A stretch of DNA of 63,282 nucleotides, the filler included, from Acidimicrobiia bacterium (lineage in GTDB: Bacteria; Actinomycetota; Acidimicrobiia; Spongiisociales; SHLN01): NCBI GenBank assembly GCA_041619515.1. It is 3 parts of 3 records of this genome, joined end to end, with 100 filler letters (N's around TTAATTAATTAA, not from the genome) between each part and the next. Parts side by side here need not be neighbours in the genome. Positions count along the whole stretch, not along the records: positions 1 to 29,617 come from JBFKDW010000033.1; 2 more parts are not named here. One strand, given 5' to 3'. The number at the start of each line of letters is the position of its first letter. Within the stretch, counting starts at the first letter, position 1. The position numbers and the translations under genes were made by a program. This document shows, in pieces, positions 1 to 59,376 of the stretch. Below the pieces are notes generated by a model. That model ran no database searches and had not been told where the DNA came from. It saw only the letters and a list, made by a program, of their open reading frames with translations.

Positions 1-2487
1 CACCTCCGGTGAGTTCTCTTCCACGGTGAAGGCCTCACTCGTGGCCTCAGGTGTGCGGTTCACGATCACCGTGACCGTCTCGGCAGTAACCAGCTCACCA
101 TCGGTAACAGTGATCGTCAGCTCATAGGACTGACCGAACGCAAGAGTGGTGTTATCGGCGATACGCAACTGACCGGTCGCGCCGACGATCGTGAATACAC
201 CATCGGGATTACCGCCGGTGATGCTCCAGTTGCTCAGCGCGTCGCCTTCAGGATCGGAGCCGGCCACGGAACCAACCGTGTCGACGTTGGCAGCATCAAA
301 GGCCAGCTCGAACAGCTGATCAGGTTCCACCACCGGAGCATCGTTTGCCCCCGTCACCGTAATGATCTGCTCACCAACGTTGGAATCATCGATCCCGTCG
401 TTGACCCAGTACTGCAATAGGCGGTCGGTGGTATCGGGATCCTGGCTGGCGTTGTCGTAGGCAATCGACGCCAGAACCGCCTCGAAGTCGGCGAGCGTGG
501 CAGGACCGGAGATGGTGAAGACTCCCGTATCGGAGTCGTAACCCATGTCACTCTCGAAGATCGAACCCGAAGGGGTGGCCGACAAGGTCTCGTCGGTGCC
601 GTCCACCCGGTTGACGATCGTCACCGTTGCCGACAACAGCGAATCACCATCGACATCGGACACGGTGAACGAGCCGTCCACCAGGACCGGGCCGCCATCC
701 TCGACGAACAGAGCTGCGAAGTCAGAGGTCTCCACCACCGGGGCGTCATTCAGCCCGGTGATTTCGATGACGACGCTCGCTCGGTCGGTGCCGCCATTGC
801 CATCCGAGACGGAGTAGTCGAACGAGTCGACCATCGATTCACCGTCGGCGAGTGCCTGCAGGGTTGCCGAACCGGACGGGTCGTAGCCAAAGGTGCCGTC
901 ACCCAGGTTGGTGATCGCCGCACCCTCCACGGAGGTTCCGTCGGCGGCGCTCACGACCAGCACGTCACCGGCGTCGGGATCCTCGTCGTTGGCCAGCACG
1001 CTGGCGATCGTGATGGAGGCGTCCTCGGTGGTCGTCGCGAACGGGGCCAGCGCGGACCCGTCGTCGAGCGCACTCGGGTCGTCGTTGACCGGCGTCACCG
1101 AGATGGACACGGTTTGGGGACTCGACTCGAGCGTTCCGTCGGTCACGCGATAGGTGAAGGAATCCTCATGATGCTCGAAGCCACCGTGGGTGTACGTGAA
1201 CGAGCCGTCCTCGGCGAGTGTGACCGATCCGTACGCGGCGTCGGTCTCGAGGGTTGCGGTGAGGGTGTCGGCCGGGCGGTCGGCATCGGTGTCGTTGGTG
1301 AGGACCCCGGCCGCCGCCTCGACGGCCAGCGTGCCGCCCTCCTCGACGCCGTCGTAGGAGTCGGGCTCGGCGACCGGCGCATTGTCGTTCACCGGGCTGA
1401 TGAAGATGTACACGGTGCCGACGTTCGAGGTGCCTTCGGAGTCGCTGACCTGATAGGTGAAGCTGTCCTCGTGGTTCTCCGACCCGTCGTGGGCGTAGGT
1501 GAACGAGCCATCCGAGTCCAGCGTCAGCGTCCCGTGCAGTGGCTGCGTCACGATCTCGGCGGTCATGGTGGGCGGCAATGCGGTCGGAGGGGCGGGGATG
1601 TTGCTCCGGTCGTTGGAGAGCAGGTTGCCCGAAACCGTGTCTCCCTCGGTCAGCTCGAACTCGTCGTCGACCGCCACCGGAGGACCGAAGTCGATGTCCT
1701 CGTAATTGCCGGCCACCGGCAGGAAGGTGGTCGAGCCCAGGGCGACGGTCCGGTCTGCCACCCCTTGGGCGTTCAGGTTCGAGAGATAGAAGGTGGAGTC
1801 GTCCGGCCGGAAGATGCCGACGGTCTGGTCGCCGTCGGCGTTCCAGTCGCCGGCGAGGATGCGGTCGGAGGGAATCCCGTAGAAGAAGTCGAGGTCGGCG
1901 ATGCCGGAGGTGTGGCTGTTGCGCATGTAGGCGAAGCCGGTGCTCTCGCGATAGAGGCCGACGGTGGTGATGCCGTCTCCGTTGAAGTCGCCGGTGAAGG
2001 GACGGTCGCCCGCGATCCCGAAGTAGTAGGAGATGTCGGCGATCCCGGTGTCGAGGGTATTGCGGAGGAACACCTGGCCGTCCCGGTACACGCCGAGGCT
2101 GTCGCACCCGTCGTCGTCCCAGTCTCCGGCCAGCGGGATGTCACCGCCCATTCCGAAGTAGAAGCTCAAGTCGGCGAACCCCTGGGTGTTCGAATTGCGC
2201 AGGTAGGCGAAGCCGTTGGAGGGGCGGAACATGCCGACCGTGTCGATCCCATCGCAGTCCCAGTCTCCCAGCAGCGGCAGGTCGCCTGGCACGCCGTAGA
2301 AGAAGCGGTCGACGGTCCCGTCGCCGTGGCGCAGGTGCCACTCGCCGGTGGCCGGGTCGAAGAGACCCACCTCGTCGGGCACTCCGTAATCTGCTCGCGC
2401 CGGAGCGGCCAGGGCCACCATGGCCATTGCCAGGGTGAGGGAGAGGAGCGTGGCTACGAACGTGCGAGCTCGGGGGGTGGGGTTCAC
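1..2487 (-). CDS. Large secreted/surface protein: N-terminal FG-GAP-like repeat module followed by tandem Ig-like/cadherin-like domains; 3' end runs off the window
   Basis: Not in the ORF track (no stop in window). GTG at 2487 after GGAGG. Hand translation gives a signal-like N-terminus (TFVATLLSLTLAMAMVALAAPARA), four GD(W/F)xxDGxxT repeats, then PVAVDD...NLLSND and FTVEENSP Ig/cadherin-type motifs. Confidence 0.85.
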   Translation of the reverse strand, partial: MNPTPRARTFVATLLSLTLAMAMVALAAPARADYGVPDEVGLFDPATGEWHLRHGDGTVDRFFYGVPGDLPLLGDWDCDGIDTVGMFRPSNGFAYLRNSNTQGFADLSFYFGMGGDIPLAGDWDDDGCDSLGVYRDGQVFLRNTLDTGIADISYYFGIAGDRPFTGDFNGDGITTVGLYRESTGFAYMRNSHTSGIADLDFFYGIPSDRILAGDWNADGDQTVGIFRPDDSTFYLSNLNAQGVADRTVALGSTTFLPVAGNYEDIDFGPPVAVDDEFELTEGDTVSGNLLSNDRSNIPAPPTALPPTMTAEIVTQPLHGTLTLDSDGSFTYAHDGSENHEDSFTYQVSDSEGTSNVGTVYIFISPVNDNAPVAEPDSYDGVEEGGTLAVEAAAGVLTNDTDADRPADTLTATLETDAAYGSVTLAEDGSFTYTHGGFEHHEDSFTYRVTDGTLESSPQTVSISVTPVNDDPSALDDGSALAPFATTTEDASITIASVLANDEDPDAGDVLVVSAADGTSVEGAAITNLGDGTFGYDPSGSATLQALADGESMVDSFDYSVSDGNGGTDRASVVIEITGLNDAPVVETSDFAALFVEDGGPVLVDGSFTVSDVDGDSLLSATVTIVNRVDGTDETLSATPSGSIFESDMGYDSDTGVFTISGPATLADFEAVLASIAYDNASQDPDTTDRLLQYWVNDGIDDSNVGEQIITVTGANDAPVVEPDQLFELAFDAANVDTVGSVAGSDPEGDALSNWSITGGNPDGVFTIVGATGQLRIADNTTLAFGQSYELTITVTDGELVTAETVTVIVNRTPEATSEAFTVEENSPEV

Positions 2488-2661
2488 TTGGTTTCGCCTC
2501 CTGCGCGGCATCCTGACCGTCAGGAAGCTGAAGGGGCTTCTTCGGTGGCCCCGCGGGAACACTTGAAGCGTTTCCAGAAAACGTTCAGCTAAAGGTCGGA
2601 GGCGCAGAGGGCTGGCGGCTATATCGCAACCCGGCTTGGACGAGGCGCGTGGGTTGGGGCG

Positions 2662-3459
2662 CTAGACCTCTTGCAGCAGTCGTGCCGTCGTGCGAGCCCG
2701 GGCCGCCAGGTCGAGCCACAGCCGGGCCGAACCGGGGTGCTCGAGGGCGATCCGATCCCAGCGCGGTGCTGCCACCTCGTACATCGTGTGCAGCAGCGGC
2801 AACATCCCGGCGTCGGTCAGCCACTCCGCCGGCAGCCGTCGGTCGGCGAGGGGAGTGCCTGCGAGGGATTCGAGGGTCGCCTTCATGACCACCCGGCCGC
2901 TCCACACTGAGAGCAAGAAGTCGTCGGTCGAAGCGGGCGGGTCGATGGGCCCGTAGCTGTCCTCGCCGGGGGCATGAAGCCCTTCTGCCCCGGCGGTGAG
3001 GGCCGGCGTGGGGCGGAGACGATCGCCGAGCTGGAGCAGCGAGAGGCGGGCGGGTTCGGCCGTCTCCCGCTCATCGGGATGACAGCGAGCGGCCGCGTCC
3101 AGCCAGGGGACCGCCCAGTGCAGCAGGCGGTCTCCGAGCAGGAAGCGGCGGTCGGCATAGGCACGGGTGGCGACGTGCGGCTCGTCACGCTCCCAGGCTT
3201 CAGACTCGGCTCTGGCGAGCGCCGCTCCCAGCCGGCACAGATCGGCCAGGTCGCGGTTGTCGAACTCGTAGCCCCAGTAGCGGGCTCTCCTATCCAGGTC
3301 GTCGTCGGGTCGGTAGTAGCGGACGACGGCGGCTTCGGTCGGAGGGAGGTCCTCCCACAGTCGGCGATGACGGCCGGCCTCCCACTCCCGGGTCAGCGTT
3401 GCCCACAGGCCGGCTTCGGCGGCAGCGGCCGCGGCCGCGTCGTCAGGCCTGGTAGGCAT
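2662..3459 (-). CDS. Putative TorD/DmsD-like molybdoenzyme maturation chaperone (divergent)
   Basis: Overlaps the oxidoreductase stop by 17 nt. RRFLLGDRLLHWAVPWL resembles the TorD-family FLxxHLxxW segment; the position is typical of such chaperones. Confidence 0.55.
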   Translation of the reverse strand: MPTRPDDAAAAAAAEAGLWATLTREWEAGRHRRLWEDLPPTEAAVVRYYRPDDDLDRRARYWGYEFDNRDLADLCRLGAALARAESEAWERDEPHVATRAYADRRFLLGDRLLHWAVPWLDAAARCHPDERETAEPARLSLLQLGDRLRPTPALTAGAEGLHAPGEDSYGPIDPPASTDDFLLSVWSGRVVMKATLESLAGTPLADRRLPAEWLTDAGMLPLLHTMYEVAAPRWDRIALEHPGSARLWLDLAARARTTARLLQEV

Positions 3460-6172
3460 CAGGTGTCGGCTTGACCGGGCGGTTCAGCCACAGCGGCCGC
3501 CGCAGGTTGCCGGGCCCGGGGCCGGGTTTGGTCAGCGCCAGCCACTCCCGGTACACCGCCAGGCTCTTGTTGGTGTCCACCACAACGTCGCCGTAGCGGT
3601 CGTCGGGCTCGGCGGCGGTGAGCCGCACCCGCTGGTGCCAGGCGTGCATTCCCGAAACCGGGTCGGGGTGGGTGGGGAAGGCCAGGTTCTGGTTGACCCC
3701 GGCGTCCTTCCACCAGATGCGCTCGCTGTCGGGGTCCTCCGAGCTGAACGGCTCAATGCCCTTCTTCTGCCGGAGCTTCCAGACACCGTCGCCGTCGGTG
3801 TCGATGTCGACGAGCGCCGAGGACCAGCGCTCGTTGCCGAGCGTGTCGGTGAGCCTCCACCGGCCCATGTGGTGGGAGGCCGCCACCACACCCGGCCTGA
3901 TTCCTTCCGTGCGCCAGGCCCGCATCACGAAGTAGCCGGTGTCGGTAGTGAGGCGGACGAGGTCGCCGGTGGAGAATCCCAGCGCGTCGGCATCGACCGG
4001 ATTGATCCACAGCGGGTGCCCGTGGCTGATCTCGTAGAGGTACTTGGCGTTCCCGCTGCGAGTATGAATGAGGGTGGGGAGCCGGAAGATCGGCAGCAGG
4101 ATGCGCTCGTTGCCCGCCATGTCCATGTCGCGCCAGTACACGTGGGTCTTGAGGTAGGTGGGAATGGCCTCCTCTTTCCAGCCCCAGTCGTGCATCGTCT
4201 CGGACCACCATTCGAGCTTGCCAGACGGCGACGGGAAGCCGGTCCGGTTCTCGCCGTCGACGGCCACTCCCTCCGGTGCCGGGCGCTCGTGCACCTCGTA
4301 GACGTCCGAGTCGATCTCGACCGCCCCGTATTTGCGCATGTACTCGAGAGGGGTGATGCCCTCGGCCGCCGCCTTGTCGGGAAGGCCGGGCACCGAGTGG
4401 TCGAACATCCACCCGTAGTACTCGTCCACCGAAACCGGGCGCGACGGATCGGCGGGGGACTCGAACCATTTCCTGATGCCGAGCGAGCCGTCGGGGTCGA
4501 CCTGCCACGACAGGTCTATCCAGAACTCGGTTTCCTCCCACACTTGGCCCGGGTTGGCGTCGTAGGTGCGGTGGTAGGTCTTGCCCTCGCGCTCGCCGGC
4601 CACCCGTAGGACGGGCTGGCGGAACCCCAGCCAGCGCCCGGCGTGCGTCTCGTAGGAAAGCGTGTCGTGGCGTTCGGCGCTCACGCCCATGGGAAGCACA
4701 TAGTCGGCGTACCAGGCGGTCTCGGACCAGGTGGGCGTCAGGGCAACGTGAAGGCCGACCTTGGACTCGTCGGTCAGCACCTCGATCCACGAGAAGCCGT
4801 CCGGGTTGGTCCACACCGGGTTGTACACCCGGGTGAAGTACACGTCGAGTTTGCCGCGCCCCTCCTTGAGGAAATAGGGCAGGAGGATGGACAGCTCGTG
4901 ATGGGCCAGCGGGTACTCGATCGGCCACAAGAGCTGGTTCCAGCGGCTGAACGGGGGCGGCATGTTCCAGTGGGACGGCTTGAATTTGTCCCAGGCATTC
5001 GGCGAGGTTCCGCCCCGGGTGCCGACCGAGCCGGTGAGGACCTGCAGGAACCACAGGCAGCGGGCCACCTGCCAGCCGCCCAGGTTTCCCGAGCCGGCCG
5101 AGCGCCAGGTGTGGGAGGCGAAGCGATTGCCGGCAGCGGCCAGCGCGGTGGCGATCTCCATGATCTGCTCCGGTCGCACGCCCGATTCGGCGGCGGCGTA
5201 CTCGATGGTGTACGAGGCGTAGGTGTCCTTGAGCATCTCGATGAACGACTCGTAGGTAGGAGCGCGGTCGGGGTACTTCTGGACGAGGGTTTCCTGCCAG
5301 TTGACCCAGCGCCGCATGAACTCGTGATCGACGGCATCCCACTCGAGGAGCTGGCGGGCGATCGCCAGCAGGATGGCCGCCTCGGTTCCCGGCCAGGTCG
5401 ACAGCCACATGTCGGCCATCGAGGCGGTGTTGGAGAGTCTCGGGTCGAGGACGGCCAGCTTGGCGCCCTTTTGCTTCGCCTCCATGATCCGCTGGGCGTG
5501 CGGATTGAAGTAGTGCCCGGTCTCGAGGTGGCTCGACAACAGGAGGATGAATCGGGCGTTGGCGAAGTCCGCAGAAGGCCGGTCGTGGCCCATCCACATG
5601 GCATAGCCGACCCGGGCGCTCGACGAGCAGATGTTGGTATGGCTGTTGTGGCCGTCGACACCCCAGGCCTTCAGCGTGCGATCCATGAAGCCGTCCTCGC
5701 CGGGGCGGCCGACGTGATACATGATTTCGTCGTGGCGATCCTCCTGGATGGCGGCCCGCATCCGTCCACCGATGTCCGAGAGCGCTTCCTCCCAGGTCAC
5801 CTGCTCCCAGTCACCCGACCCGCGCCGGCCCGTGCGGCGAAGCGGGTGGAGGATGCGCTCGGGGTCGTTGATTTGGTTGATGGTGGCCGGGCCCTTGGCG
5901 CAGTTGCGGCCGCGTGAGCCCGGATGGGCCGGGTTGCCCTCCAGCTTCTTGACCTCACCCGTCTGCTTGTTCACGTAGGCGAGCAGGCCACAACCCGACT
6001 CGCAGTTGAAGCAGGTCGTGGGAATCAGCCGATAGCTGTTCTTGACCTTCTGCGGCCAGGCGCGGGCGTCGTACTCCTCCCAGTCATCCCAGCGGTCCGG
6101 GGGTGGGTAGTTGGTGAGCTCGCTTCCCGGCAGCAGTCGCGGAATCGACTCCAGGTCCTTGTCTATGGTCAT
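3443..6172 (-). CDS. Mo/W-bisPGD (DMSO reductase superfamily) oxidoreductase catalytic subunit, Psr/Sre/Soe-like, no Tat signal
   Basis: 909 aa. FS0 motif CFNCESGC...RNCAKG; HNSHTNICSS (candidate Cys metal ligand); ETAWYADYVLP; C-terminal molydop-binding region (LWINPVDA...GIRPGVV). No twin-arginine leader. Confidence 0.92.
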   Translation of the reverse strand: MTIDKDLESIPRLLPGSELTNYPPPDRWDDWEEYDARAWPQKVKNSYRLIPTTCFNCESGCGLLAYVNKQTGEVKKLEGNPAHPGSRGRNCAKGPATINQINDPERILHPLRRTGRRGSGDWEQVTWEEALSDIGGRMRAAIQEDRHDEIMYHVGRPGEDGFMDRTLKAWGVDGHNSHTNICSSSARVGYAMWMGHDRPSADFANARFILLLSSHLETGHYFNPHAQRIMEAKQKGAKLAVLDPRLSNTASMADMWLSTWPGTEAAILLAIARQLLEWDAVDHEFMRRWVNWQETLVQKYPDRAPTYESFIEMLKDTYASYTIEYAAAESGVRPEQIMEIATALAAAGNRFASHTWRSAGSGNLGGWQVARCLWFLQVLTGSVGTRGGTSPNAWDKFKPSHWNMPPPFSRWNQLLWPIEYPLAHHELSILLPYFLKEGRGKLDVYFTRVYNPVWTNPDGFSWIEVLTDESKVGLHVALTPTWSETAWYADYVLPMGVSAERHDTLSYETHAGRWLGFRQPVLRVAGEREGKTYHRTYDANPGQVWEETEFWIDLSWQVDPDGSLGIRKWFESPADPSRPVSVDEYYGWMFDHSVPGLPDKAAAEGITPLEYMRKYGAVEIDSDVYEVHERPAPEGVAVDGENRTGFPSPSGKLEWWSETMHDWGWKEEAIPTYLKTHVYWRDMDMAGNERILLPIFRLPTLIHTRSGNAKYLYEISHGHPLWINPVDADALGFSTGDLVRLTTDTGYFVMRAWRTEGIRPGVVAASHHMGRWRLTDTLGNERWSSALVDIDTDGDGVWKLRQKKGIEPFSSEDPDSERIWWKDAGVNQNLAFPTHPDPVSGMHAWHQRVRLTAAEPDDRYGDVVVDTNKSLAVYREWLALTKPGPGPGNLRRPLWLNRPVKPTPDAYQA

Positions 6173-6184
6173 CGAATCACGTCC

Positions 6185-7756
6185 TCACGACAGCGGCACG
6201 CTTTGGCCGGCCTTCACGAATGCGTCATCTGCGAACCAGATGCCGGCCATGGCCGACAACCCGCCGAGCGCACCCACCCAGGTGGCCCCGCCGAGTGCGA
6301 TCGCGCCGAGCGCAATCGGCAGCACCACCCCGAGCAGCTGGCCCCCCAGCCACCATTCCCGGGCGTAAACGCCGCGGGTCATGTGATGCATGGCGTCGGT
6401 GATGTTGCGGGTGGGGTGGCGTGCGGTGAGCTCGGCGAAGGCGATGAGACCAAGAGCGGCCGCACCGCCGATCATCGCCCAGGTGAATGCGGTAGTGGCC
6501 GAATCGGGCACCTCCAAGAACAGGTCGAGCACCAGCCCGGAGCCTCCCCCGACCGTGAAGGCGCCCGCGACCATATGCCACAGAAGAATCGGGCTTTGCC
6601 ACAGGTCGCGGGCTTCGGCCTGGCCGAAGAGGAAGGCGGTGTAGCCGGCGGCGGCGAGGGCGACGGGGACCGATACCCAGACGACGACTGCGACCAGGTT
6701 GTCGGCGCCGGCGATCCCGGCCAGGAACCAGACCCCCAGCAGGGCGGCGTAGACCGAGAGGATGACTGCGCCTCGGACCAGCCAGGAGCCCCAGCGGCCC
6801 TTGGTGAGCAGATACAGGAACCGGTCCGGCCGCTTGAGATCGGCCACCAATAGTGCCCCGGTGCCGGCCAGGAACAAGCCCGCCACGAGCGGCGCCACCC
6901 AGTTGATGAGGGCCGGGCCGGTGCCGCTGCCGGCCAGCAAGGCGATGGCGACCGCGAGGGCGAGCCCGGCTGCGATCCCCTTGGTGAGGAAATAGCTCGA
7001 CACCCGCCACCCCCACGGCATGGGATGGTCGGTGGTGTACACGACCCGCGGGGGAGCGCCGTTCTTGCCGTATTCGAATCCCGGAGGCGGCTGGGGCTCG
7101 TGACCGTTCCTCGGGGTGAGATCGACGGTCATCCAGGGCGGGACCGGGTCGGGGGGATCCCGCCAGATGAAGTCGTCGATCAGCGTCTCGGCCCCGAGCG
7201 GGTCGAGGCTGGCCTGCTCGGCACCCTTGTACCAGAGGTTGGGCTTGGTGCCTTGTTCGGGTGCTCGCACGAACACGTCTTCGGAGGAAACGATGTGGGA
7301 GATGGCGGTGGTCGGATCGTCGAGGTCTCCGGCGATGATCGCCTGCTCTGGGCACACCACCACGCAGGCCGGCTCGAGGCCGACCTCCACCCGGTGCACG
7401 CAATAGTTGCACTTCTGGGCGGTATGTTCCCCCGGGTCGATGTAGAGGGCGTCGTACGGACATGCTTGCATGCACGACTTGCAACCGATGCACCGGTCGG
7501 TGTCGAAGTCGACGATGCCGTCCTCGCGTTTGAACAGGGCGGTGGTCGGACAGATCTCGACACACGGCGCGTCGGTGCAGTGGTTGCAGCGCATGACCGA
7601 GAAGAAACGCTTCGTGTCGGGCCAGGTGCCCTTCTCGATGTATTTGACCCAGGTGCGGTTGACGCCGAGGGGAACGTCATGCTCGGTCTTGCACGCAACG
7701 GTGCAGGCGTGGCACCCGATGCATGAGTCCTGATCGATGACAAAGCCGTAGCGCAG
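6185..7756 (-). CDS. 4Fe-4S ferredoxin (NrfC/PsrB-like) fused to a NrfD/PsrC-like membrane anchor; apparent CTG start
   Basis: The frame is open 54 codons upstream of the track ATG (7594) and encodes RYGFVIDQDSCIGCHACTVACKTEH. It then has CNHCTDAPCVEICP, CIGCKSCMQACP, KCNYC and multiple TM helices (PWGWRVSSYF, LLVADLKRPDRF). SD AAGGAG lies 6 nt before CTG at 7756; in-frame TAG is 5 codons upstream. Confidence 0.9.
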   Translation of the reverse strand: MRYGFVIDQDSCIGCHACTVACKTEHDVPLGVNRTWVKYIEKGTWPDTKRFFSVMRCNHCTDAPCVEICPTTALFKREDGIVDFDTDRCIGCKSCMQACPYDALYIDPGEHTAQKCNYCVHRVEVGLEPACVVVCPEQAIIAGDLDDPTTAISHIVSSEDVFVRAPEQGTKPNLWYKGAEQASLDPLGAETLIDDFIWRDPPDPVPPWMTVDLTPRNGHEPQPPPGFEYGKNGAPPRVVYTTDHPMPWGWRVSSYFLTKGIAAGLALAVAIALLAGSGTGPALINWVAPLVAGLFLAGTGALLVADLKRPDRFLYLLTKGRWGSWLVRGAVILSVYAALLGVWFLAGIAGADNLVAVVVWVSVPVALAAAGYTAFLFGQAEARDLWQSPILLWHMVAGAFTVGGGSGLVLDLFLEVPDSATTAFTWAMIGGAAALGLIAFAELTARHPTRNITDAMHHMTRGVYAREWWLGGQLLGVVLPIALGAIALGGATWVGALGGLSAMAGIWFADDAFVKAGQSVPLS

Positions 7757-7844
7757 AGCCTGCTCCTTCTAGCTCGGGGAATCGTCTCCGTTGGTGGGCG
7801 TCGTCAGGCTAGAAGAGCCGCGCGACGGCCTGAAAAGCAGGCTG

Positions 7845-8069
7845 CTAGGCCTTCTCGATGATGAAGTGGAATTCTTCGTTCTCCTCGAACTGCTCTTTGA
7901 GCGAGTTGCCGGTGTCCTTGGCCCAGGCCGGAATGTCCGAGAGGGCGCCGCGGTCGGTGGCGATCAGCTCGAGGGTCTGGCCCGATGTCATGTCCTTGAT
8001 TGCCATTGCGGTCTTGACCACCGGCATCGGGCACTGCAGGTCTCGGGCGTCGACGGTTGTATCTGCCAT
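7845..8069 (-). CDS. tusA: Sulfur carrier protein TusA
   Basis: 74 aa, VDARDLQCPMP motif; SD AAGGAG before ATG 8069. Confidence 0.93.
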   Translation of the reverse strand: MADTTVDARDLQCPMPVVKTAMAIKDMTSGQTLELIATDRGALSDIPAWAKDTGNSLKEQFEENEEFHFIIEKA

Positions 8070-8089
8070 TAGGTTGCTCCTTCGTTGGG

Positions 8090-8617
8090 CTAGATGAACA
8101 GTTGGATCGAGGATTGTTTCATGAGGCTGATGGCCGATCCGGCACCGGTGGGCTTGTCGAGCCCGTCGATCAGATCGTCGTTTGTGAGGCCCATGAGATC
8201 CATCGTCATCTGGCACGGCCAGAGCTTCACCCCCAGCTCCTTCGACAGGTCCAGCAACTCCTGTACGGATGCGACGTGCTTGTCTTCGGCCAGGCTCTTC
8301 ATCATGGTGGGCCCGAGGCCGCCGAAGTGGAGCTTGGAGAGGTGCAGGCCATCGGGAGTCCCCTTGTGGAAGGCCGACATCATCTTCTGGCGCCAGTCTT
8401 CTCCGGTGATCCCTCTTCCCGGCTTCTTGAGAATGCTGAGCCCCCAGAAGGTGAAGAAGACGGTTACGTCCATCCCGTAGGCGGCGCCGGTGGTGGCCAG
8501 GATGAGAACCGGCCATGCCTTGTCAAGATCGCCGGAGGCGGCGATGATGACCATCTTTTCGTTCTCAGGAGCCTGTTCGGAGGCGACCTGCGCTTCTTGG
8601 AGTTCCGGAACCGTCAT
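8090..8617 (-). CDS. DsrE/DsrF/DrsH-like sulfurtransferase (DsrE2-type)
   Basis: SGDLDKAWPVLILATTGAAYGMDVTVFFTFWGL and WPCQMTMDLMG conserved-Cys motif; SD AGGAG before ATG 8617. Confidence 0.9.
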   Translation of the reverse strand: MTVPELQEAQVASEQAPENEKMVIIAASGDLDKAWPVLILATTGAAYGMDVTVFFTFWGLSILKKPGRGITGEDWRQKMMSAFHKGTPDGLHLSKLHFGGLGPTMMKSLAEDKHVASVQELLDLSKELGVKLWPCQMTMDLMGLTNDDLIDGLDKPTGAGSAISLMKQSSIQLFI

Positions 8618-8636
8618 GGGATTCTCCTGGCTCGGT

Positions 8637-8656
8637 ATATGCGAATGAGCGAATAT
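8637..8656. promoter_or_regulatory. Palindromic operator 1 (ATATGCGA-N4-GCGAATAT), candidate ArsR-family binding site
   Basis: Imperfect inverted repeat in the dsrE/arsR divergent gap, just downstream of a minus-strand TACGAT -10-like hexamer (8661-8666); near copy at 9088-9107. Confidence 0.7.
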
Positions 8657-8738
8657 TGCCATCGTAGATCGTGCAATGCAAGTGGCCGGTTGGCGGGCGC
8701 GGCTTTCGCAAGGTGACGGCGTGTGGCATAGTTGTCAG

Positions 8739-9050
8739 ATGACATCAGTTCAGCGCGAGCTCTATCAGTTGCACGCCAGCGTCTGCAAAGGCCTGGCCGA
8801 CCCCAAGCGACTGCTGATTCTGAACTCGCTGCGGGACGGAGAGCTGTCGGTCTCCGAGATCTGTGGCGAGGTCGGTCTCCCGCAGGCGAACGTCTCGCAG
8901 CATCTGGCGGTGCTGCGCGATCGAGGCCTGGTAGCCACCCGCCGCGACGGCCAATTCGTGTTCTACCGGGTCGCTTCGGACAAGATCATCCAGGCCCTCG
9001 ACCTCCTGCGCGAGGTCATGACCGAACAGGTGGCAAGGCCGGTCCGCTAG
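8739..9050 (+). CDS. ArsR/SmtB family transcriptional repressor
   Basis: KGLADPKRLLIL...ELSVSEI...QANVSQHLAVLRDRGLVATRRDGQFVFY; CATAGT 6 nt before ATG (leaderless-type). Confidence 0.93.
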   Translation: MTSVQRELYQLHASVCKGLADPKRLLILNSLRDGELSVSEICGEVGLPQANVSQHLAVLRDRGLVATRRDGQFVFYRVASDKIIQALDLLREVMTEQVARPVR

Positions 9051-9087
9051 TCCGAGTTGTCGCCGGCGCGGCGGGCTCGTATGCTCG

Positions 9088-9107
9088 ATATGCGAGCGGT
9101 CGCATGT
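9088..9107. promoter_or_regulatory. Palindromic operator 2 (ATATGCGA-N4-TCGCATGT)
   Basis: Lies between a TATGCT -10-like hexamer (9080-9085) and the GAGGAGG SD of the MBL gene; left half identical to operator 1. Confidence 0.72.
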
Positions 9108-9121
9108 ATCGAGGAGGAGCG

Positions 9122-10249
9122 ATGAGTCGGACAATTACCACCGAAGACCTGGCCCAGCGAGTGGACGATGTCGCCCGGGCACCGTTCATTCTCGATGTGC
9201 GAGCCGAGGATCAGTTCGAGCGGTGGCGTATCGAAGGCAAGGCTGCGCTGGTGATGGAGAACATTCCTTACTGGACTGCCCTCACCGACCTCGGCCAGAT
9301 TGTGAAGAAGCTGCCCGAGCACCAGGAGGTCGTGGTCGTGTGCGCCCATGGCGGCTCGTCGGGCATGGTGGCCGAGATGGTCGATCGTCCCAACGTCCAC
9401 AATCTGGAAGGTGGAATGGAGGCATGGGCCAACACCCTGGTGCCGCGCACCCTGTTCGACGACGGTACCCGCTTCGTCATCCAGCTCGATCGCATCGCCA
9501 AGGCCTGCTTGTCGTACGCGGTCGGCTCGCGGGGAGAAACGATGGCGCTCATCGATCCCGGCGGTGACATCGAGCCCTACCTCGCCATTGCCGAAGAGAT
9601 GAGCTCACAGATCACCGACGTGTTCGACACCCACCTCCACGCCGACCACATCTCGCTCGGCCGCCAGGTCGCCTCGCATGCCGACGCTACCTACCACCTC
9701 TCGCCCGGTGACGGTGAGGGCGCCGCCTTCGAGTATGCCGCGCTTCGCGACGGGGAGGTCTTTACCTTCGGAGAGCTGGAACTCATCGTTCGTTCCGTGG
9801 CAACACCCGGGCACACCCCCGGAAGTACCTCGCTCGAAGTGCATGATCGCTTTCTCATGACGGGCGACGCCGTGTTCGTCTCGGGAGTGGGACGTCCCGA
9901 CCTGGGCGGCGAGACCGAGCCGTGGGCCCGTGACTTGTTCAACACCATCCATGAGAAGCTGGGTGCTCTCAGTCGGGAGCTCGAAGTGTGTCCCGCTCAC
10001 TACACGGCCCGCTCCGAGTCCGGCGACGACGGGACCATCCGCCGCTCGCTCGGTGATCTGCTCGAGAACGACCCGGTCGTTTCCCTGGCGGACGAGGCCG
10101 AATTCGTCGACTACGTCGTATCCCACCTGGGGGAGCCGCCCGAGGTCTACGCCAAGATTCGGCGGGTCAATCTCGGTCTTACCGCCCCCGATCCGGAAAT
10201 GGTCAAAGAGCTGGAGGTCGGCCGCAACGAGTGCGCCCTGAGCTCGTGA
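9122..10249 (+). CDS. Rhodanese + MBL-fold fusion, persulfide dioxygenase-like
   Basis: N-terminal rhodanese (ILDVR...VVCAHGGSS...NLEGGMEAW); MBL motifs THLHADH, TPGHTPGS, TGDAVFVSGVGRPDL, PAH; strong SD. Confidence 0.88.
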   Translation: MSRTITTEDLAQRVDDVARAPFILDVRAEDQFERWRIEGKAALVMENIPYWTALTDLGQIVKKLPEHQEVVVVCAHGGSSGMVAEMVDRPNVHNLEGGMEAWANTLVPRTLFDDGTRFVIQLDRIAKACLSYAVGSRGETMALIDPGGDIEPYLAIAEEMSSQITDVFDTHLHADHISLGRQVASHADATYHLSPGDGEGAAFEYAALRDGEVFTFGELELIVRSVATPGHTPGSTSLEVHDRFLMTGDAVFVSGVGRPDLGGETEPWARDLFNTIHEKLGALSRELEVCPAHYTARSESGDDGTIRRSLGDLLENDPVVSLADEAEFVDYVVSHLGEPPEVYAKIRRVNLGLTAPDPEMVKELEVGRNECALSS

Positions 10250-10262
10250 GCGTTCCGAGCCG

Positions 10263-11819
10263 GTGACAAAAGCGCACAAGCCGCCTTCACGATCCCGTCC
10301 CGCTGCGAATCGCCTAACCCGGGGCGATGTCATCGCCGGCATAAGCGTCGCCCTCGTACTCATCCCCCAGTCGCTTGCCTACGCCGAGCTCGCCGGCCTG
10401 CCCGCCTACTACGGGCTCTATGCCGCCGCCCTTCCCCCGCTGGCGGCGGCCTTCTTCGCCTCGTCGAGGTACCTACAAACCGGGCCGGTGGCCATGACGG
10501 CGCTCCTCACCTTCGGGGCACTAGCGGCCTTCGCCGAACCCTTCAGCCGAGAATGGATCGAGCTGGCCGCGTTGCTGGCGCTGGTGGTGGGCGGCATCCG
10601 GGTGGCGCTGGGACTGGTGCGGGGCGGCGTGATCGCCTACTTCATGTCCCAGCCCGTCCTCGTGGGTTTCACCAGCGCCGCCGCCATACTCATCGTGTCC
10701 TCCCAGCTGCCGACGGCCCTGGGCGTCGTGGCAGACGGCGACACGATCCTCGCCCGGTTGTGGTGGACGATCACACACGCCGGTGAGTGGGAGCGCACCG
10801 CCATCGTGTTGTCGGTCGTCACCGTCGTCCTGGTCGCCGGCGGCCGCCGTCTTCATCAGGCGTTTCCGGGAGTGCTCATCGCGGTCGCCGGGGCGATCAC
10901 GTACAGCGCCCTGGCTGACTACACGGGCCTGCGGGTGGGCGACGTCGACCTCAGCCTCCCGAGCTCGCCCCTAGCCCTGCCGTGGGGTGACGTCTGGTCG
11001 CTGCTGGTTCCCGGCGGCGTGATTGCCCTGGTCGGTTTCGCCGAACCCGCCTCCATTGCCCGCATCTTCGCCGCCAAAGACCGAGAACGCTGGTCCCCCA
11101 ACAAGGAGCTCATCAGCCAGGGTGTCGCCAACCTGGCTTCAGGCCTGTCGGGTGGGTTCCCGGTCGGGGGATCGTTTTCCCGAAGCTCCATCAACCATCT
11201 CGTCGGCGGTGAGACCCGCTGGAGCGGGGCAGTCACCGGGGCGGTCGTCCTCGCGTTCCTGCCTCTCGCCGCGGTCATGTCCGATCTGCCGCGAGCAGTG
11301 TTGGGTGCCATTGTCGTGGCCGCCGTTATCCGGCTCATCGATATGCGCCGCCTGCTGGGATTCTGGCGCCTATCGCGCGCCCAGGCTCTCGTTGCCTGGA
11401 TCACCTTTGGCGCCACCCTCATTCTGTCGCCTCGAATCGATGTGGCGGTCGTGCTCGGTATCGGCCTCGGTATCACCGTCCATCTCTGGCGGGAGCTGCG
11501 CGCCCCGGTCGGGTCGGCCTATGACCACGGTGTACTCACGTTGCGGCCGCAGGGGGTCATCTTCTTTGGCTCTTCGCCAGACGTTGCCGACGCCATGACC
11601 GATCTCCTCGCTCAATACCCCGACGCCGAGCGAGTGGTCTTCGACCTGGCCGGGGTGGGGAGGATCGATCTCACCGGGGCGCTCGCCCTCAAGACCCTGG
11701 TCGATGACGCTCGGCTCGCAGGGCTCGAGTCCGAGATCGCCCGGGTTCCCCGGCACGCCGAGCGGGTTCTCAAAGCGGTGTGGGACGGGCATCTCGCCGT
11801 GGAGCGCGACCAGACATGA
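10263..11819 (+). CDS. SulP/SLC26 family anion transporter with STAS domain
   Basis: AGISVALVLIPQSLAYAELAGLP..GLY, GGSFSRS; C-terminal STAS (IFFGS...VFDLAGVGRIDLTG). Confidence 0.93.
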   Translation: MTKAHKPPSRSRPAANRLTRGDVIAGISVALVLIPQSLAYAELAGLPAYYGLYAAALPPLAAAFFASSRYLQTGPVAMTALLTFGALAAFAEPFSREWIELAALLALVVGGIRVALGLVRGGVIAYFMSQPVLVGFTSAAAILIVSSQLPTALGVVADGDTILARLWWTITHAGEWERTAIVLSVVTVVLVAGGRRLHQAFPGVLIAVAGAITYSALADYTGLRVGDVDLSLPSSPLALPWGDVWSLLVPGGVIALVGFAEPASIARIFAAKDRERWSPNKELISQGVANLASGLSGGFPVGGSFSRSSINHLVGGETRWSGAVTGAVVLAFLPLAAVMSDLPRAVLGAIVVAAVIRLIDMRRLLGFWRLSRAQALVAWITFGATLILSPRIDVAVVLGIGLGITVHLWRELRAPVGSAYDHGVLTLRPQGVIFFGSSPDVADAMTDLLAQYPDAERVVFDLAGVGRIDLTGALALKTLVDDARLAGLESEIARVPRHAERVLKAVWDGHLAVERDQT

Positions 11820-12403
11820 TGCTGGGTGCGGTGCTGGCCGGCGGCGGGTCTACTCGCATGGGCCGGGACAAGGCGGTGGTGGAGGTGGCCGGGCGCACGA
11901 TGCTCGACCGGGTGGCCGGTGCCGTCGGAGCCGTAGTGGACCGGGTGGTGGTGGCCGGCCATGAGTCGTTGCCGGGCATCGACCGGCTGCCCGACCCGAT
12001 TGCCGGCCGGGCCGGGCCGCTGGCAGGCGTGGCAGCCGCGCTGGCAGAGGCCGACGGCTCGGGAGCCCAATCGGTGCTCGCGGTTGCGGTTGATCATCCC
12101 TTTGTGCGGCCGAGCACCCTCGCCCGCCTGCTGGAACTCGGGGGTACGGAGGCGGTGATACCCGTGGCGGACGGTGTCCGGCAGGTGACCTGCGCCGTGT
12201 ATCCGGCAGCCTGGCACGCGGAAGCCCTCGCCGAACTGCGCGCCGGAGGGTCGATCCAGAGCCTGCTGGACCGCATGCCGCATCGGCTGGTGACTCCGGA
12301 GGAGTGGACGCAATGGGGGGAGGACGGCGCCTCCTGGTTCAGCGTCGACGACCCGGGTACCCTGGCGGCAGGCGTGGATCGGTTCGGGTCAGTCCTCGAG
12401 TAG
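11816..12403 (+). CDS. mobA: Molybdenum cofactor guanylyltransferase
   Basis: GAVLAGGGSTRMGRDKA, GPLAGV, AVDHP; ATGA overlap with the sulP stop. Confidence 0.9.
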   Translation: MMLGAVLAGGGSTRMGRDKAVVEVAGRTMLDRVAGAVGAVVDRVVVAGHESLPGIDRLPDPIAGRAGPLAGVAAALAEADGSGAQSVLAVAVDHPFVRPSTLARLLELGGTEAVIPVADGVRQVTCAVYPAAWHAEALAELRAGGSIQSLLDRMPHRLVTPEEWTQWGEDGASWFSVDDPGTLAAGVDRFGSVLE

Positions 12404-12631
12404 ACCGTCCCCGAGGCGGGCGGCTTCCTCCCAGGCGGCCGCAGGATCGGCCCCCGCCGCCGCCCGAGCCGCCACGAACCAGCCGGCGAGGAAGGTGGCG
12501 AGGGGAGCGTTCTTGCGCTCGCTTCCGTGCGCCACCCGCCGGGTGAAGTCGAGAATCGCCGCTTCGTCGGGAAGCGAGATCTCCTCACCTGCGGATTCGC
12601 TGAGCGTTCGGGCATAGTCGTCTGTCCACAT
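12389..12631 (-). CDS. Small DUF6457-like protein (MobA-associated in actinobacteria)
   Basis: ILDFTRRVAHGSERKNAPLATFLAG matches the LDLxRxVAHxxxRxxAPLxxFL pattern as I recall it; convergent with mobA. Confidence 0.75.
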   Translation of the reverse strand: MWTDDYARTLSESAGEEISLPDEAAILDFTRRVAHGSERKNAPLATFLAGWFVAARAAAGADPAAAWEEAARLGDGLLED

Positions 12632-13406: not shown

Positions 13407-14163
13407 CCGGCTCGACCCCACCCGCATACCCCGCCATATCGGAATCATCATGGATGGGAACGGCCGGTGGGCCAACGCCCGTGGCTTCGAGCGGACGGTG
13501 GGGCACGCCGCCGGCGAACAGTCGATCTTCGACACCATCGACGACTGCCTCCAACTGGGCGTGGAATGGCTGACGGTGTACGCCTTCTCCACGGAGAACT
13601 GGAACCGTCCAGCCGAGGAAGTCGACTTCCTCATGGCATTCAACGAGAGCCTGCTCGTGCGCCACCGCGACGCTGTTGCCGAGAAGGGAGTGCGGCTTCA
13701 CTTCATCGGCCTGGCGGACGATCCCCGGGTCCCGCAGAACGTGGTGGAGCGAATGGCCGAAAGCGAGGCCGTGACGGCCGGCAACACGGCGATGCACGTG
13801 GTGTTCGCCTTCAACTACGGCGGCAGGGCCGAGATCGCCGACGCAGCCCGGTCCATCGCCGAGGAGGTCGCCTCCGGCTCACTCACTCCCTCCGAGGTGG
13901 ACGCGGCAGCCATCAGCGCCCGGCTGTATCTGCCGGAGATGCCAGAGCCGGAGCTCATCATCCGCACCAGCGGGGAGCAGCGGCTCAGCAACTTCCTCCT
14001 GTGGCAATCTGCCTACTCGGAGCTGGTCTTCACCCCGGTGCTGTGGCCCGATTTCGACCGGGCGGCGCTCCTGGACTGCATCCTCGAATACCAGAGCCGA
14101 GACCGCCGCTTCGGGGGGGCAACGGATGCGGCGATCTCACCCGAGCACGCCGCGGAGCAGTAG
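13399..14163 (+). CDS. uppS: Polyprenyl (undecaprenyl-type) diphosphate synthase
   Basis: PRHIGIIMDGNGRWA, YAFSTENWNRP, NYGGR, IRTSGEQRLSNFLLWQSAYSE. Confidence 0.96.
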   Translation: MSDRLDPTRIPRHIGIIMDGNGRWANARGFERTVGHAAGEQSIFDTIDDCLQLGVEWLTVYAFSTENWNRPAEEVDFLMAFNESLLVRHRDAVAEKGVRLHFIGLADDPRVPQNVVERMAESEAVTAGNTAMHVVFAFNYGGRAEIADAARSIAEEVASGSLTPSEVDAAAISARLYLPEMPEPELIIRTSGEQRLSNFLLWQSAYSELVFTPVLWPDFDRAALLDCILEYQSRDRRFGGATDAAISPEHAAEQ

Positions 14164-14862
14164 CCCCACCGCGGCCAGGCCCGAGATCGCCAGCACGGCT
14201 GTGCGAAGTCCTCGGCCTTCGATGCGGGCGGTGAAGAACCGGCTCAGCCACAGGCCCAGGAAGGCCGCCGGGAGGAGAAGTCCGGCTACCCGGATGTCGC
14301 TGCCGCTGATTTCGCTGGTGGCGGCGCGCACCGTGATGGAGAACACGATCCCGATGGCGAAGATGGCGTTGAGGCTGGATCGGAGGGTGCCCCCCTCGAC
14401 GTCTCTGTATAGGAGGGCCAGGGGCGGGCCTCCGATCGAAGCGACGAGACCCATCGTTCCGGAGGCGATCCCCGCCGCCATCTTGGTGATCGGCGTGAGC
14501 CGGACCACTACACCGCTCGCCACGATCACGACGCCGGCCAGCACCAGGACGGCGATGAGCACATCGAGCGCCGACTCCGAGAAGGTCTTGAGGAGCACCA
14601 CTCCCAGGGCGGCACCGGGGAACCTGCCTGCCACCACCCATCCCACTCCCGACAGGTCGAGGTGACGCCATTCACGCCACACGATGGCCACTGCCAGGGG
14701 AAGGGCGATGAGCAACTGCGGCACCGGGGCGAGATCCCGATCCAGCAGGCTCAGCACCGGGACGGAAACGACGGCGAGCCCAAACCCGATGCTCCCCTGA
14801 ATGAGCCCCGCCGCGATGGTGATCACGAAGGCAAGCGCAAGGATCCACGGGTCGGCGGGCAT
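14137..14862 (-). CDS. TauE/SafE family (sulfite exporter-like) membrane protein
   Basis: AGLIQGSIGFG and SIGGPP repeat motifs; about 8 TM helices. Confidence 0.88.
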   Translation of the reverse strand: MPADPWILALAFVITIAAGLIQGSIGFGLAVVSVPVLSLLDRDLAPVPQLLIALPLAVAIVWREWRHLDLSGVGWVVAGRFPGAALGVVLLKTFSESALDVLIAVLVLAGVVIVASGVVVRLTPITKMAAGIASGTMGLVASIGGPPLALLYRDVEGGTLRSSLNAIFAIGIVFSITVRAATSEISGSDIRVAGLLLPAAFLGLWLSRFFTARIEGRGLRTAVLAISGLAAVGLLLRGVLG

Positions 14863-29617: not shown

Positions 29618-29717
29618 NNNNNNNNNNNNNNNNNNNNNNNNNNNNNNNNNNNNNNNNNNNNTTAATTAATTAANNNNNNNNNNNNNNNNNNNNNNNNNNN
29701 NNNNNNNNNNNNNNNNN
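29618..29717. other. Artificial contig linker (N44-TTAATTAATTAA-N44)
   Basis: Exactly 100 nt with a six-frame stop cassette; genes on both sides are cut mid-frame. Confidence 0.97.
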
Positions 29718-59276: not shown

Positions 59277-59376
59277 NNNNNNNNNNNNNNNNNNNNNNNN
59301 NNNNNNNNNNNNNNNNNNNNTTAATTAATTAANNNNNNNNNNNNNNNNNNNNNNNNNNNNNNNNNNNNNNNNNNNN
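59277..59376. other. Artificial contig linker (N44-TTAATTAATTAA-N44)
   Basis: Identical in structure to 29618-29717. Confidence 0.97.

Follow-up and report, generated by a model that had tools for sequence, protein, structure and literature searches.

A Tat-less molybdoenzyme of the psrBCA type in a candidate sulfane-sulfur oxidation cluster of an Acidimicrobiia bacterium

We analyzed a 63,282-nucleotide stretch of DNA (the window) from an Acidimicrobiia bacterium (GCA_041619515.1) and, within it, a cluster of ten adjoining genes that encodes a molybdoenzyme (Mo enzyme) without a twin-arginine translocation (Tat) signal, together with an iron-sulfur (FeS)-NrfD fusion, the sulfur carriers DsrE and TusA, an ArsR regulator, a rhodanese-metallo-beta-lactamase (MBL) fusion, and a SulP transporter. 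Our preferred reading, to which we give a probability of about 0.62, is that the cluster would serve a sulfane-sulfur-induced clearing route in the cytoplasm, leading from a sulfide:quinone oxidoreductase (SQR) through DsrE2 and TusA to the rhodanese-dioxygenase, from there as sulfite to the Mo enzyme, acting as a sulfite:menaquinone oxidoreductase other than SoeABC, and as sulfate to SulP; we infer every one of these activities. The route from persulfide through sulfite to sulfate had been put forward in a preliminary description of this DNA, and it is still the best-supported reading, with added evidence from gene context (sHdr and xsc/sauS), but its assignment of the enzyme to the SoeABC type has to be dropped.

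The same description held the architecture to be undescribed. The layout of the enzyme was in fact already reported by Wright et al. in 2013 (PMC3906813), so that the enzyme type is known. We found no published account of the variant seen here, in which the enzyme is coupled to a rhodanese-dioxygenase, a one-cysteine ArsR regulon, and SulP. Our literature search, whose coverage excluded most subscription papers, found no assay of the enzyme family and no account of this gene cluster. Sources cited below as excerpts were available in part.

The catalytic subunit and its family

The catalytic subunit belongs to the Cys-ligated branch of the molybdenum/tungsten-bis(pyranopterin guanine dinucleotide) (Mo/W-bisPGD; DMSO reductase/MopB) superfamily, with MopB domains, an FS0 motif (Cys54/57/61/91), and the metal ligand Cys182 within the motif NSHTNIC. 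Cys182 aligned with the ligand-region cysteines of PsrA (2vpw) and ArrA (6cz7) and was invariant in 77/77 aligned orthologs. The family is large and tight: 8000/8000 scored candidates passed an E value of 1e-50, and at least 635 confirmed genome stretches carry a member. The gene was found in 25 of 61 related genomes and, at ≥60% identity, in 30 of 301 genomes of Actinomycetota; one genome marked unpublished in each set (G028, lacking the gene, among the 61, and G187 among the 30) enters these tallies only and no statement on neighborhoods. Plasmid-borne copies occur in Thermomicrobium (61% identity), Rhodococcus jostii RHA1 (59%), and five haloarchaea (52 to 59%).

No NCBIfam cut-off was passed by the subunit, and ESM Atlas returned generic molybdopterin clusters only. 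Membership in PsrA/PhsA was rejected (193 bits against a cut-off of 694 for PhsA, the best model; no twin-arginine [RR] motif; 26.5% identity to PhsA), as was membership in TtrA (92 versus 1750 bits; Tat-less), in ArrA/ArxA (105 versus 1600 bits; neither the Tat signal nor the arsenic gene context), and in formate dehydrogenase (Fdh; 150 versus 666 bits). We then placed the family in two quick trees, both computed without bootstraps and on rows that lack ArrA, archaeal SreA, and the PsrA of Wolinella and Thermus. The first used 34 of 44 rows (the 10 omitted being fragments, likely frameshifted or redundant rows, and Nqo3) and the second 26 chosen rows under a mixture model. In both, the family shared one clade (value 100), on a long stem and apart from the FdnG, NapA, DmsA, and AH-like rows, with a sister group of Tat-bearing proteins of Myxococcota, Campylobacterota, and Aquificota. 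A phylogeny had been named in advance as a check on the sulfur assignment: in these trees, whose rows lack ArrA and archaeal SreA, the subunit fell in no characterized nonsulfur clade.

Two observations concern neighboring clades. In Sulfurovum mangrovi (L111:10001-13169), the sister-clade gene is unannotated and lies in two frames, which reflects a frameshift or a sequencing error. A plasmid of Azoarcus KH32C (L112:2248-14142) carries an arsenic island that encodes a PhnD-like protein, a two-component system, and a Tat-bearing Psr-like enzyme; this enzyme scores far under the ArrA cut-off and belongs to an uncharacterized clade next to the family.

SoeABC, known from Allochromatium vinosum and Aquifex aeolicus, shares with the present enzyme a cytoplasm-facing, Cys-ligated Mo-bisPGD subunit with FeS and membrane subunits (PMC5114278 and PMC10100899, excerpts), and also genomic niches beside xsc and with sHdr. 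In the reference loci, it differs in having three genes in the order A-B-C with a DmsC-type anchor, where the present enzyme has a fused B-NrfD gene followed by A. Both best trees set the family apart from putative SoeA (96 and 98), although an approximately unbiased (AU) test did not reject their union as one clade (p = 0.065). Identity between the subunit and putative SoeAs was 27 to 30% over only ∼250 residues, compared with 52 to 77% among the SoeAs themselves, which are putative references chosen by their A-B-DmsC layout and a sequence motif rather than characterized enzymes. The reference SoeC had no BLAST match to the anchor at an E value of 1e-3, and no SoeA ortholog was found in the 61 related genomes, five of which gave partial matches at 29 to 37%. 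SoeA identity was rejected for want of full-length orthology (27% over 250 residues) and for the NrfD anchor and BC-A gene order; the enzyme is probably not of the SoeABC type by descent.

A closer counterpart is PSRLC3 of green sulfur bacteria, reportedly treated by Frigaard and Bryant in 2008 and by Gregersen et al. in 2011. According to Wright et al., SAR406, MGII archaea, green sulfur bacteria, Caldilinea (Chloroflexi), and Haladaptatus (haloarchaea) have a PsrA that is Tat-less and preceded by a psrBC fusion, and related forms occur in Sulfurimonas and Sulfurihydrogenibium; they report that the green-sulfur-bacterial complex was proposed to oxidize sulfite (citing Gregersen 2011) and that the substrate of psrBCA is not readable from sequence (PMC3906813, excerpt). 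PSRLC3 is elsewhere listed as a sulfite-oxidizing system (PMC6338057, excerpt) and described as two genes (PMC5473276, excerpt). The present enzyme shares the Tat-less catalytic subunit, the upstream psrBC fusion, the two genes, and the BC-A order, and the relatives named by Wright et al. (Chloroflexi, haloarchaea, Sulfurimonas, and Aquificales) are the taxa that our searches returned. On this architecture and these named taxa, compared without Chlorobi or SAR406 sequences, the enzyme matches the PSRLC3/psrBCA type. The surroundings differ: sulfite is proposed to come from rDsr in the PSRLC3 hosts, while here we find a rhodanese-dioxygenase, DsrE2, TusA, ArsR with an operator, SulP, and TorD. 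A survey of the superfamily by Wells et al. in 2023 lists no such family in the portion available and mentions unnamed Cys-ligated lineages (PMC10100899, excerpt).

The preliminary description called the enzyme Tat-less, and this was borne out: an RR motif was present in 0/120 relatives, against 117/117 full-length members of the sister clade. The FeS-NrfD fusion has 16 cysteines over four cluster motifs, and its FeS part is 45% identical to TtrB. Its start codon is a CTG at position 7756, preceded by AAGGAG, and ORF calling based on ATG drops the first Fe-S cluster; at the aligned start in 65 loci, CTG was commonest (24), followed by GTG (19), TTG (11), other codons (7), and ATG (4). With anchor helices placed by eye, we counted 13 lysines and arginines on the FeS-side loops and 0 on the opposite loops. 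The bias was found in 82/82 family anchors (means of 11.6 versus 1.1), many of them close kin, and was reversed in 2/2 control anchors (5 versus 12 in the sister clade and 3 versus 5 in the Tat-bearing Azoarcus enzyme). With an RR motif present in 0/120 relatives and a uniform positive-inside bias, the complex is predicted, with good support, to face the cytoplasm with the N terminus of its anchor inside.

Putative sulfite sources, sulfur carriers, and regulation around the enzyme

We then looked at the genes that accompany the enzyme in other genomes. In the Acidimicrobiia-related genome G066, arsR is divergent from tusA-dsrE-hdrC-B-A-H-B3-etfBA-emo-lbpA-lpl-lipS1-lipS2, a series that ends co-directionally in the FeS-NrfD and Mo genes; its ArsR is 58% identical to ours, its TusA is orthologous, its DsrE is more distant, and its Hdr labels are based on sub-cut-off matches and gene order. 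The layout is that of type II sHdr systems, and sHdr-LbpA oxidizes sulfane sulfur to sulfite (PMC11094781). Genes resembling sHdr also adjoin the Mo enzyme in four other loci (L015, L057, L064, and L077). Sulfonate genes form another setting: xsc (861 versus a cut-off of 676 bits) is followed after 860 bp by the Mo enzyme in L080, sauS (735 versus 600 bits) follows the enzyme at 2.7 kb in G023, and sauS-xsc-pta lies 6 kb upstream of it in Halomarina PSR21. In Azospirillum, the equivalent xsc-adjacent place is taken by a putative soeABC. Xsc releases sulfite without sulfane sulfur. Since cytoplasmic sulfite is the sole product common to the dioxygenase, sHdr, and Xsc, this context points to sulfite as the substrate of the Mo enzyme.

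Two of these loci are of interest in themselves. The type II sHdr-LbpA-lipoate assembly operon of G066 is complete and has the same ArsR and operator (L122:8127-18751 and L076:51-12709), and the Halomarina PSR21 plasmid, whose record is unannotated, carries an archaeal sulfonate catabolism cluster of sauS, ADH, xsc, pta, and CoA transferase genes (L129:4757-20516).

Conservation of the cluster was counted in 48 of 80 near loci, namely those with ≥6.4 kb of upstream sequence, and in a distant set of 20 loci, chosen for long contigs from 26 matches in Actinomycetota outside the order. Both arms of the cluster (dsrE, tusA, arsR, and rhodanese-MBL) occurred together in 26/48 near loci, and with sulP in 21; the TorD-like gene was present in 39, sulP in 27, and mobA in 15. 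Distant loci had SulP (14/20), a CstB-like MBL-rhodanese (13), an SQR-like flavoprotein (9), DsrE2 (6), LbpA (3), and xsc (0) as neighbors; lbpA adjoined the enzyme in 3/48 near loci. On plasmid pRHL3 of R. jostii RHA1, rhodanese-MBL is divergent from dsrE-tusA-FeS/NrfD-Mo, with ArsR nearby and the operator present (identities of 59% for Mo, 48% for FeS-NrfD, 51% for DsrE, 49% for TusA, 60% for ArsR, and 37% for rhodanese-MBL). The expectation that the two arms co-occur in other genomes was therefore upheld, in 26/48 loci and in RHA1. Natrinema and Halomicrococcus combine rhodanese-MBL, tauE, FeS-NrfD, Mo, and mobA. Among 39 high-quality genomes of the order, the Mo gene was present in 16 and the rhodanese-MBL ortholog in 12, all within those 16, though these kin are not independent. 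Membrane proteins of the DUF202 family, often paired, also recur near these sulfur clusters (L108:7603-8394, L186, L187, L190, L192, and L017).

The predicted cotranscription of dsrE and tusA with the Mo genes, and not with the dioxygenase arm, could mean that the Mo enzyme oxidizes sulfide or carrier-bound sulfane sulfur directly. It would do so either as a reverse Psr or by turning TusA/DsrE persulfide into sulfite or thiosulfate, working alongside the dioxygenase at low O2. The Psr of Wolinella is able to oxidize sulfide (PMC3906813, excerpt). We nevertheless consider direct oxidation improbable, as dsrE and tusA are missing beside the Mo enzyme in 19/48 near and 14/20 distant loci, sulfite alone is supplied in the xsc contexts, and an SQR is already present in the genome.

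The carriers and the rhodanese-MBL protein have the residues expected for sulfur transfer and oxidation. TusA Cys13 was conserved in 40/40 orthologs and DsrE Cys135 in 38/38, the latter protein scoring 99.5 against a cut-off of 210 for NCBIfam DsrE2. The best PDB relatives of rhodanese-MBL were 3tp9, 9rhq, 3r2u, 4ysb, BpPRF (5ve3), and ETHE1 (4chl), with glyoxalase II behind; HxHxDH, H231, D249, H293, Cys74, Cys129, and Cys371 were invariant in 30 to 33 orthologs, and the protein has another sequence in place of the CstB loop motif GAGSPCG. The MBL motif by itself does not tell persulfide dioxygenases (PDOs) from glyoxalase II; taken with a kinship nearer to PDOs, the iron-binding residues place the protein with the ETHE1/CstB/PRF type, and it is probably a persulfide dioxygenase/sulfurtransferase. 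YrkH of Bacillus is likewise a rhodanese-MBL fusion. The Bacillus yrkDEFHIJ and Staphylococcus cst systems resemble the present cluster in their persulfide-sensing repressor, DsrE-like YrkE, TusA-like YrkI, second PDO YrkH, anion exporter, and genomic SQR; they differ in ending in TauE export of sulfite/thiosulfate and in using a CstR-type repressor (PMC9918477, excerpt). The present cluster adds an ArsR, SulP, and a quinone-coupled Mo enzyme.

As for the regulator, Cys16 of ArsR was kept in 42/42 orthologs and Cys42 in 23/42. Persulfide sensors of the SqrR/BigR type carry paired cysteines located in helices 2 and 5. Assignment to that type was rejected, because ArsR, whose sole invariant Cys lies in helix 1, has none near its C terminus and scored 67 bits against the BigR cut-off of 155. 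A candidate operator, a dyad that we take to resemble the SqrR box, had its core pattern in 30/41 promoter regions, against 0.9 expected and a maximum of 5 in 500 resamples, the pattern having been derived from the same 41 regions; it was also found in 4/6 held-out regions, including those of RHA1 and of the G066 sHdr operon. An unguided inverted-repeat search did not pick it out. A TTGACA-like hexamer was present in 34/41 regions, lying 21 to 22 nt ahead of the dyad in 23/25 regions with both.

A type III SQR (NF049943, over cut-off) is encoded elsewhere in the genome, on contig C4, with tusE/dsrC and a second dsrE2. This operon (L114:6304-9938) consists of an excisionase-type HTH gene, the SQR, a gene for an unknown 233-aa protein, tusE/dsrC, and dsrE2. 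The genome also has a heme-copper oxidase and ATP sulfurylase, and moaA on another contig. The cluster is hence not self-contained, as had been claimed, with SQR and moaA on other contigs and mobA and DUF6457 kept in 15/48 and 0/48 loci, respectively. The absence of sox, sHdr, and rDsr genes had been stated for the window, which consists of three contigs (C33, C34, and C129) joined by N runs around TTAATTAATTAA at 29618-29717 and 59277-59376, where adjacency is artificial. Because only positions 1-29617 are continuous with the locus, we retested this absence on the genome (95.65% complete), in which no SoxY, sHdrA/B, NIR_SIR, SoeA, or xsc ortholog was found. Two other loci of the genome encode enzymes of related interest: contig C18 carries a Tat-bearing type II DMSO-reductase-family operon (L117:3697-9433), and contig C22 a putative selenate reductase subunit of the YgfK type that scores over its cut-off (L116:2430-5999).

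Competing readings

Several observations weigh against sulfite oxidation by this route. The nearest solved folds of the catalytic subunit are reductases (ArrA, TM score 0.69; PsrA, 0.65), and the Tat-bearing sister clade has the same NSHTNIC ligand motif. Proteins of the sister-clade type are annotated as polysulfide reductases, and some of their hosts are sulfur reducers (PMC3906813, PMC10045233, and PMC4584964, excerpts). An SQR ortholog was found in 39/61 related genomes, 18/25 with the Mo gene and 21/36 without, which shows no specific link; SQR co-occurrence was discarded as evidence, and since genomes of the order often encode an SQR whether or not they have the Mo enzyme, we regard it as permissive and not diagnostic. 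The adjacency to xsc or sauS concerns three loci only, 7/48 near loci are without any queried sulfur gene, and 4/16 high-quality genomes with the Mo gene are without rhodanese-MBL. A dioxygenase role of YrkH-like proteins has been called hypothetical (PMC9918477, excerpt), and the substrate and direction of SulP, which would export sulfate or sulfite, are putative.

The reductase folds and the sister clade, together with the nesting of the family among uncharacterized Psr/Phs-like rows (98, 26-row tree) and with PhsA as best NCBIfam model, would suit a quinol-fed enzyme that faces the cytoplasm and reduces polysulfide/sulfur, tetrathionate, or thiosulfate, to which DsrE2, TusA, and rhodanese deliver sulfane sulfur for respiration or for detoxification to H2S, and which may be bidirectional. 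Sulfur carriers flank true haloarchaeal Psr operons too (PMC6176080, excerpt). PsrABC/PhsABC, TtrABC, and ArrAB share with the present enzyme the Cys-ligated fold, an NrfC-like FeS subunit, and an NrfD-family anchor, but they are Tat-exported and periplasm-facing, and the Mo subunit is ≤27% identical to theirs and far under their cut-offs. With menaquinol as the donor, the reduction of polysulfide and thiosulfate is energetically uphill, and an enzyme turned toward the cytoplasm would presumably work without the usual help of the proton motive force. Moreover, an O2-dependent dioxygenase-like gene is predicted to be coregulated with the enzyme, the hosts of the enzyme include aerobes (Rhodococcus, Thermomicrobium, and Natrinema), and its place next to xsc and next to an oxidative sHdr operon would be left unexplained. 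Sulfur reduction in Sulfurovum indicum induced the psrA3 group, which is close to the Psr of Wolinella, the psr groups of that species being unmatched to the clades defined here. Altogether, a reductase is the rival that we take most seriously, and we still judge it unlikely.

In other bacteria, TusA and rhodaneses take part in the sulfuration of cofactors. The carriers of the cluster could accordingly supply only the Mo sulfido ligand or the sulfur of the molybdenum cofactor, for an enzyme with a nonsulfur substrate. The occurrence of mobA, mrp, and moaA beside the Mo enzyme in relatives, the stand-alone copies in 7/48 loci, and the NCBI label "formate dehydrogenase" on some relatives fit such a role. 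The Fdh score and the separation from FdnG, NapA, DmsA, and AH-like rows do not, and the repeated association with SQR, SulP, TauE, sHdr, and xsc would go unexplained, so that we hold a nonsulfur substrate to be very improbable.

Gene layout, proposed route, and significance

All ten genes of the preliminary description are real, in the order and orientation it gave, with the expected Pfam domains in nine (Table 1). Among the matches listed, the nearest kin are nearly all labeled Acidimicrobiia or Actinomycetota.

Table 1 Features of the cluster and its predicted regulatory sites
Feature	Position	Strand	Basis
TorD/DmsD-family maturation chaperone, divergent, extra C-terminal helical part	2662-3459	-	fold match
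Mo/W-bisPGD catalytic subunit, 909 aa, Tat-less	3443-6172	-	PF04879/PF00384/PF01568
FeS-NrfD fusion: 4x[4Fe-4S] ferredoxin and 8-helix NrfD/PsrC anchor	6185-7756	-	Fer4_11 and PF03916
tusA, TusA sulfur carrier, Cys13	7845-8069	-	PF01206, 87 bits
dsrE, DsrE2/YrkE-like sulfur carrier, single Cys135	8090-8617	-	PF13686 DrsE_2, 163 bits
Candidate ArsR operator, dyad ATATKCG-N6-CGCATAT	8637-8656	-	overlaps -10 box of dsrE promoter
Candidate sigma-70-type left-arm promoter	8653-8681	-	putative -35 TTGCAT (8681-8676), 17 nt, -10 CAATAT (8658-8653)
arsR, ArsR/SmtB-family repressor	8739-9050	+	NF033788 above cut-off
Rhodanese-MBL fusion, probable persulfide dioxygenase/sulfurtransferase	9122-10249	+	PDB relatives, invariant residues
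sulP, SulP anion transporter with STAS domain	10263-11819	+	PF00916 and PF01740
mobA, MobA-like molybdenum cofactor guanylyltransferase	11816-12403	+	PF12804
DUF6457 gene, convergent, probably no stable cluster part	12389-12631	-	PF20058, 43 bits

The TorD-like gene has no Pfam or NCBIfam match, but the call made for it in the preliminary description stands, since the structural model (pLDDT 93.5) confirms a TorD fold. In a comparison with 48,161 chains, its top five structural matches were all redox-enzyme maturation proteins (Z of 15.0 to 11.0), among them TtrD (Z 15.0, rmsd 2.4, 133 aligned), YcdY (14.1), DmsD (13.1), and NarJ (11.4), over residues ∼1 to 150; unrelated helical proteins reached Z ≤9.8, and chance helical folds may reach ∼13. 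Foldseek returned the same proteins at E values of 0.5 to 0.9 only, and hhalign against true TorD neighbors gave 59% probability and an E value of 9e-5 only. PF02613-positive genes occupy the same position in 9/20 distant actinobacterial loci, and the PYASVY and EPDH motifs of these distant neighbors are lost in the TorD-like protein.

SulP scored under the TIGR00815 cut-off and the MobA-like protein at 70 bits against 152 (TIGR02665); a second mobA copy lies on contig C98. DUF6457 was rejected as a stable part of the cluster: tblastn found it in 0/48 related loci, and phmmer gave one match among 104 loci, at an E value of 0.34 and far from the cluster. A TauE/SafE sulfite exporter gene at 14137-14862 (-), 1.5 kb past the locus behind recO and uppS, was also rejected as a member, its position being kept in just 1/80 loci. 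At the contig end, positions 1-2562 (-) encode a large secreted-looking protein with GDWxxDG repeats and cadherin/Ig-like segments, which runs off the contig.

We propose that sulfite oxidation in this organism would proceed as follows. The type III SQR would turn sulfide into polysulfide, and ArsR, once its cysteine is persulfidated, would leave the dyad that covers the -10 box. Sulfane sulfur would pass along the invariant cysteines of DsrE2, TusA, and the rhodanese domain, as is known for relatives, and the MBL domain may, by homology, convert it with O2 to sulfite. Cytoplasmic sulfite would then be oxidized to sulfate by the Cys-ligated Mo-bisPGD subunit, matured by TorD and MobA, five Fe-S clusters would carry the electrons to quinone, which is reduced at the NrfD anchor of the fusion, and SulP may export sulfate or sulfite. 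The quinone site presumably lies on the same side as the substrate site, by analogy with PsrC; the heme-copper oxidase, further down the chain, would therefore be the only point of energy conservation.

More broadly, the Mo family may have arisen independently as a second sulfite:quinone oxidoreductase of the cytoplasm, and be the main one of Actinomycetota, Chloroflexi, and haloarchaea, standing behind any sulfite source, whether persulfide dioxygenase, type II sHdr, or Xsc, under a one-cysteine ArsR regulon; we see the chances of this wider proposal as evenly balanced. If the cluster works as we read it, the PSRLC3/psrBCA enzyme, known from proposals only in the literature we found, would gain a function. 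R. jostii RHA1, a cultured host of the same module, makes the substrate question testable. In a sediment survey, SoeABC was undetected though sulfur was oxidized (PMC12345210, excerpt), a gap that the Mo enzyme could fill. In heterotrophs, the SQR-PDO pathway is commonly taken to end at sulfite and thiosulfate (PMC9918477, excerpt); the cluster would complete the route to sulfate, with two more electrons gained for respiration, and heterotrophs could burn sulfide fully to sulfate in a way that SoeABC-based surveys would have missed.

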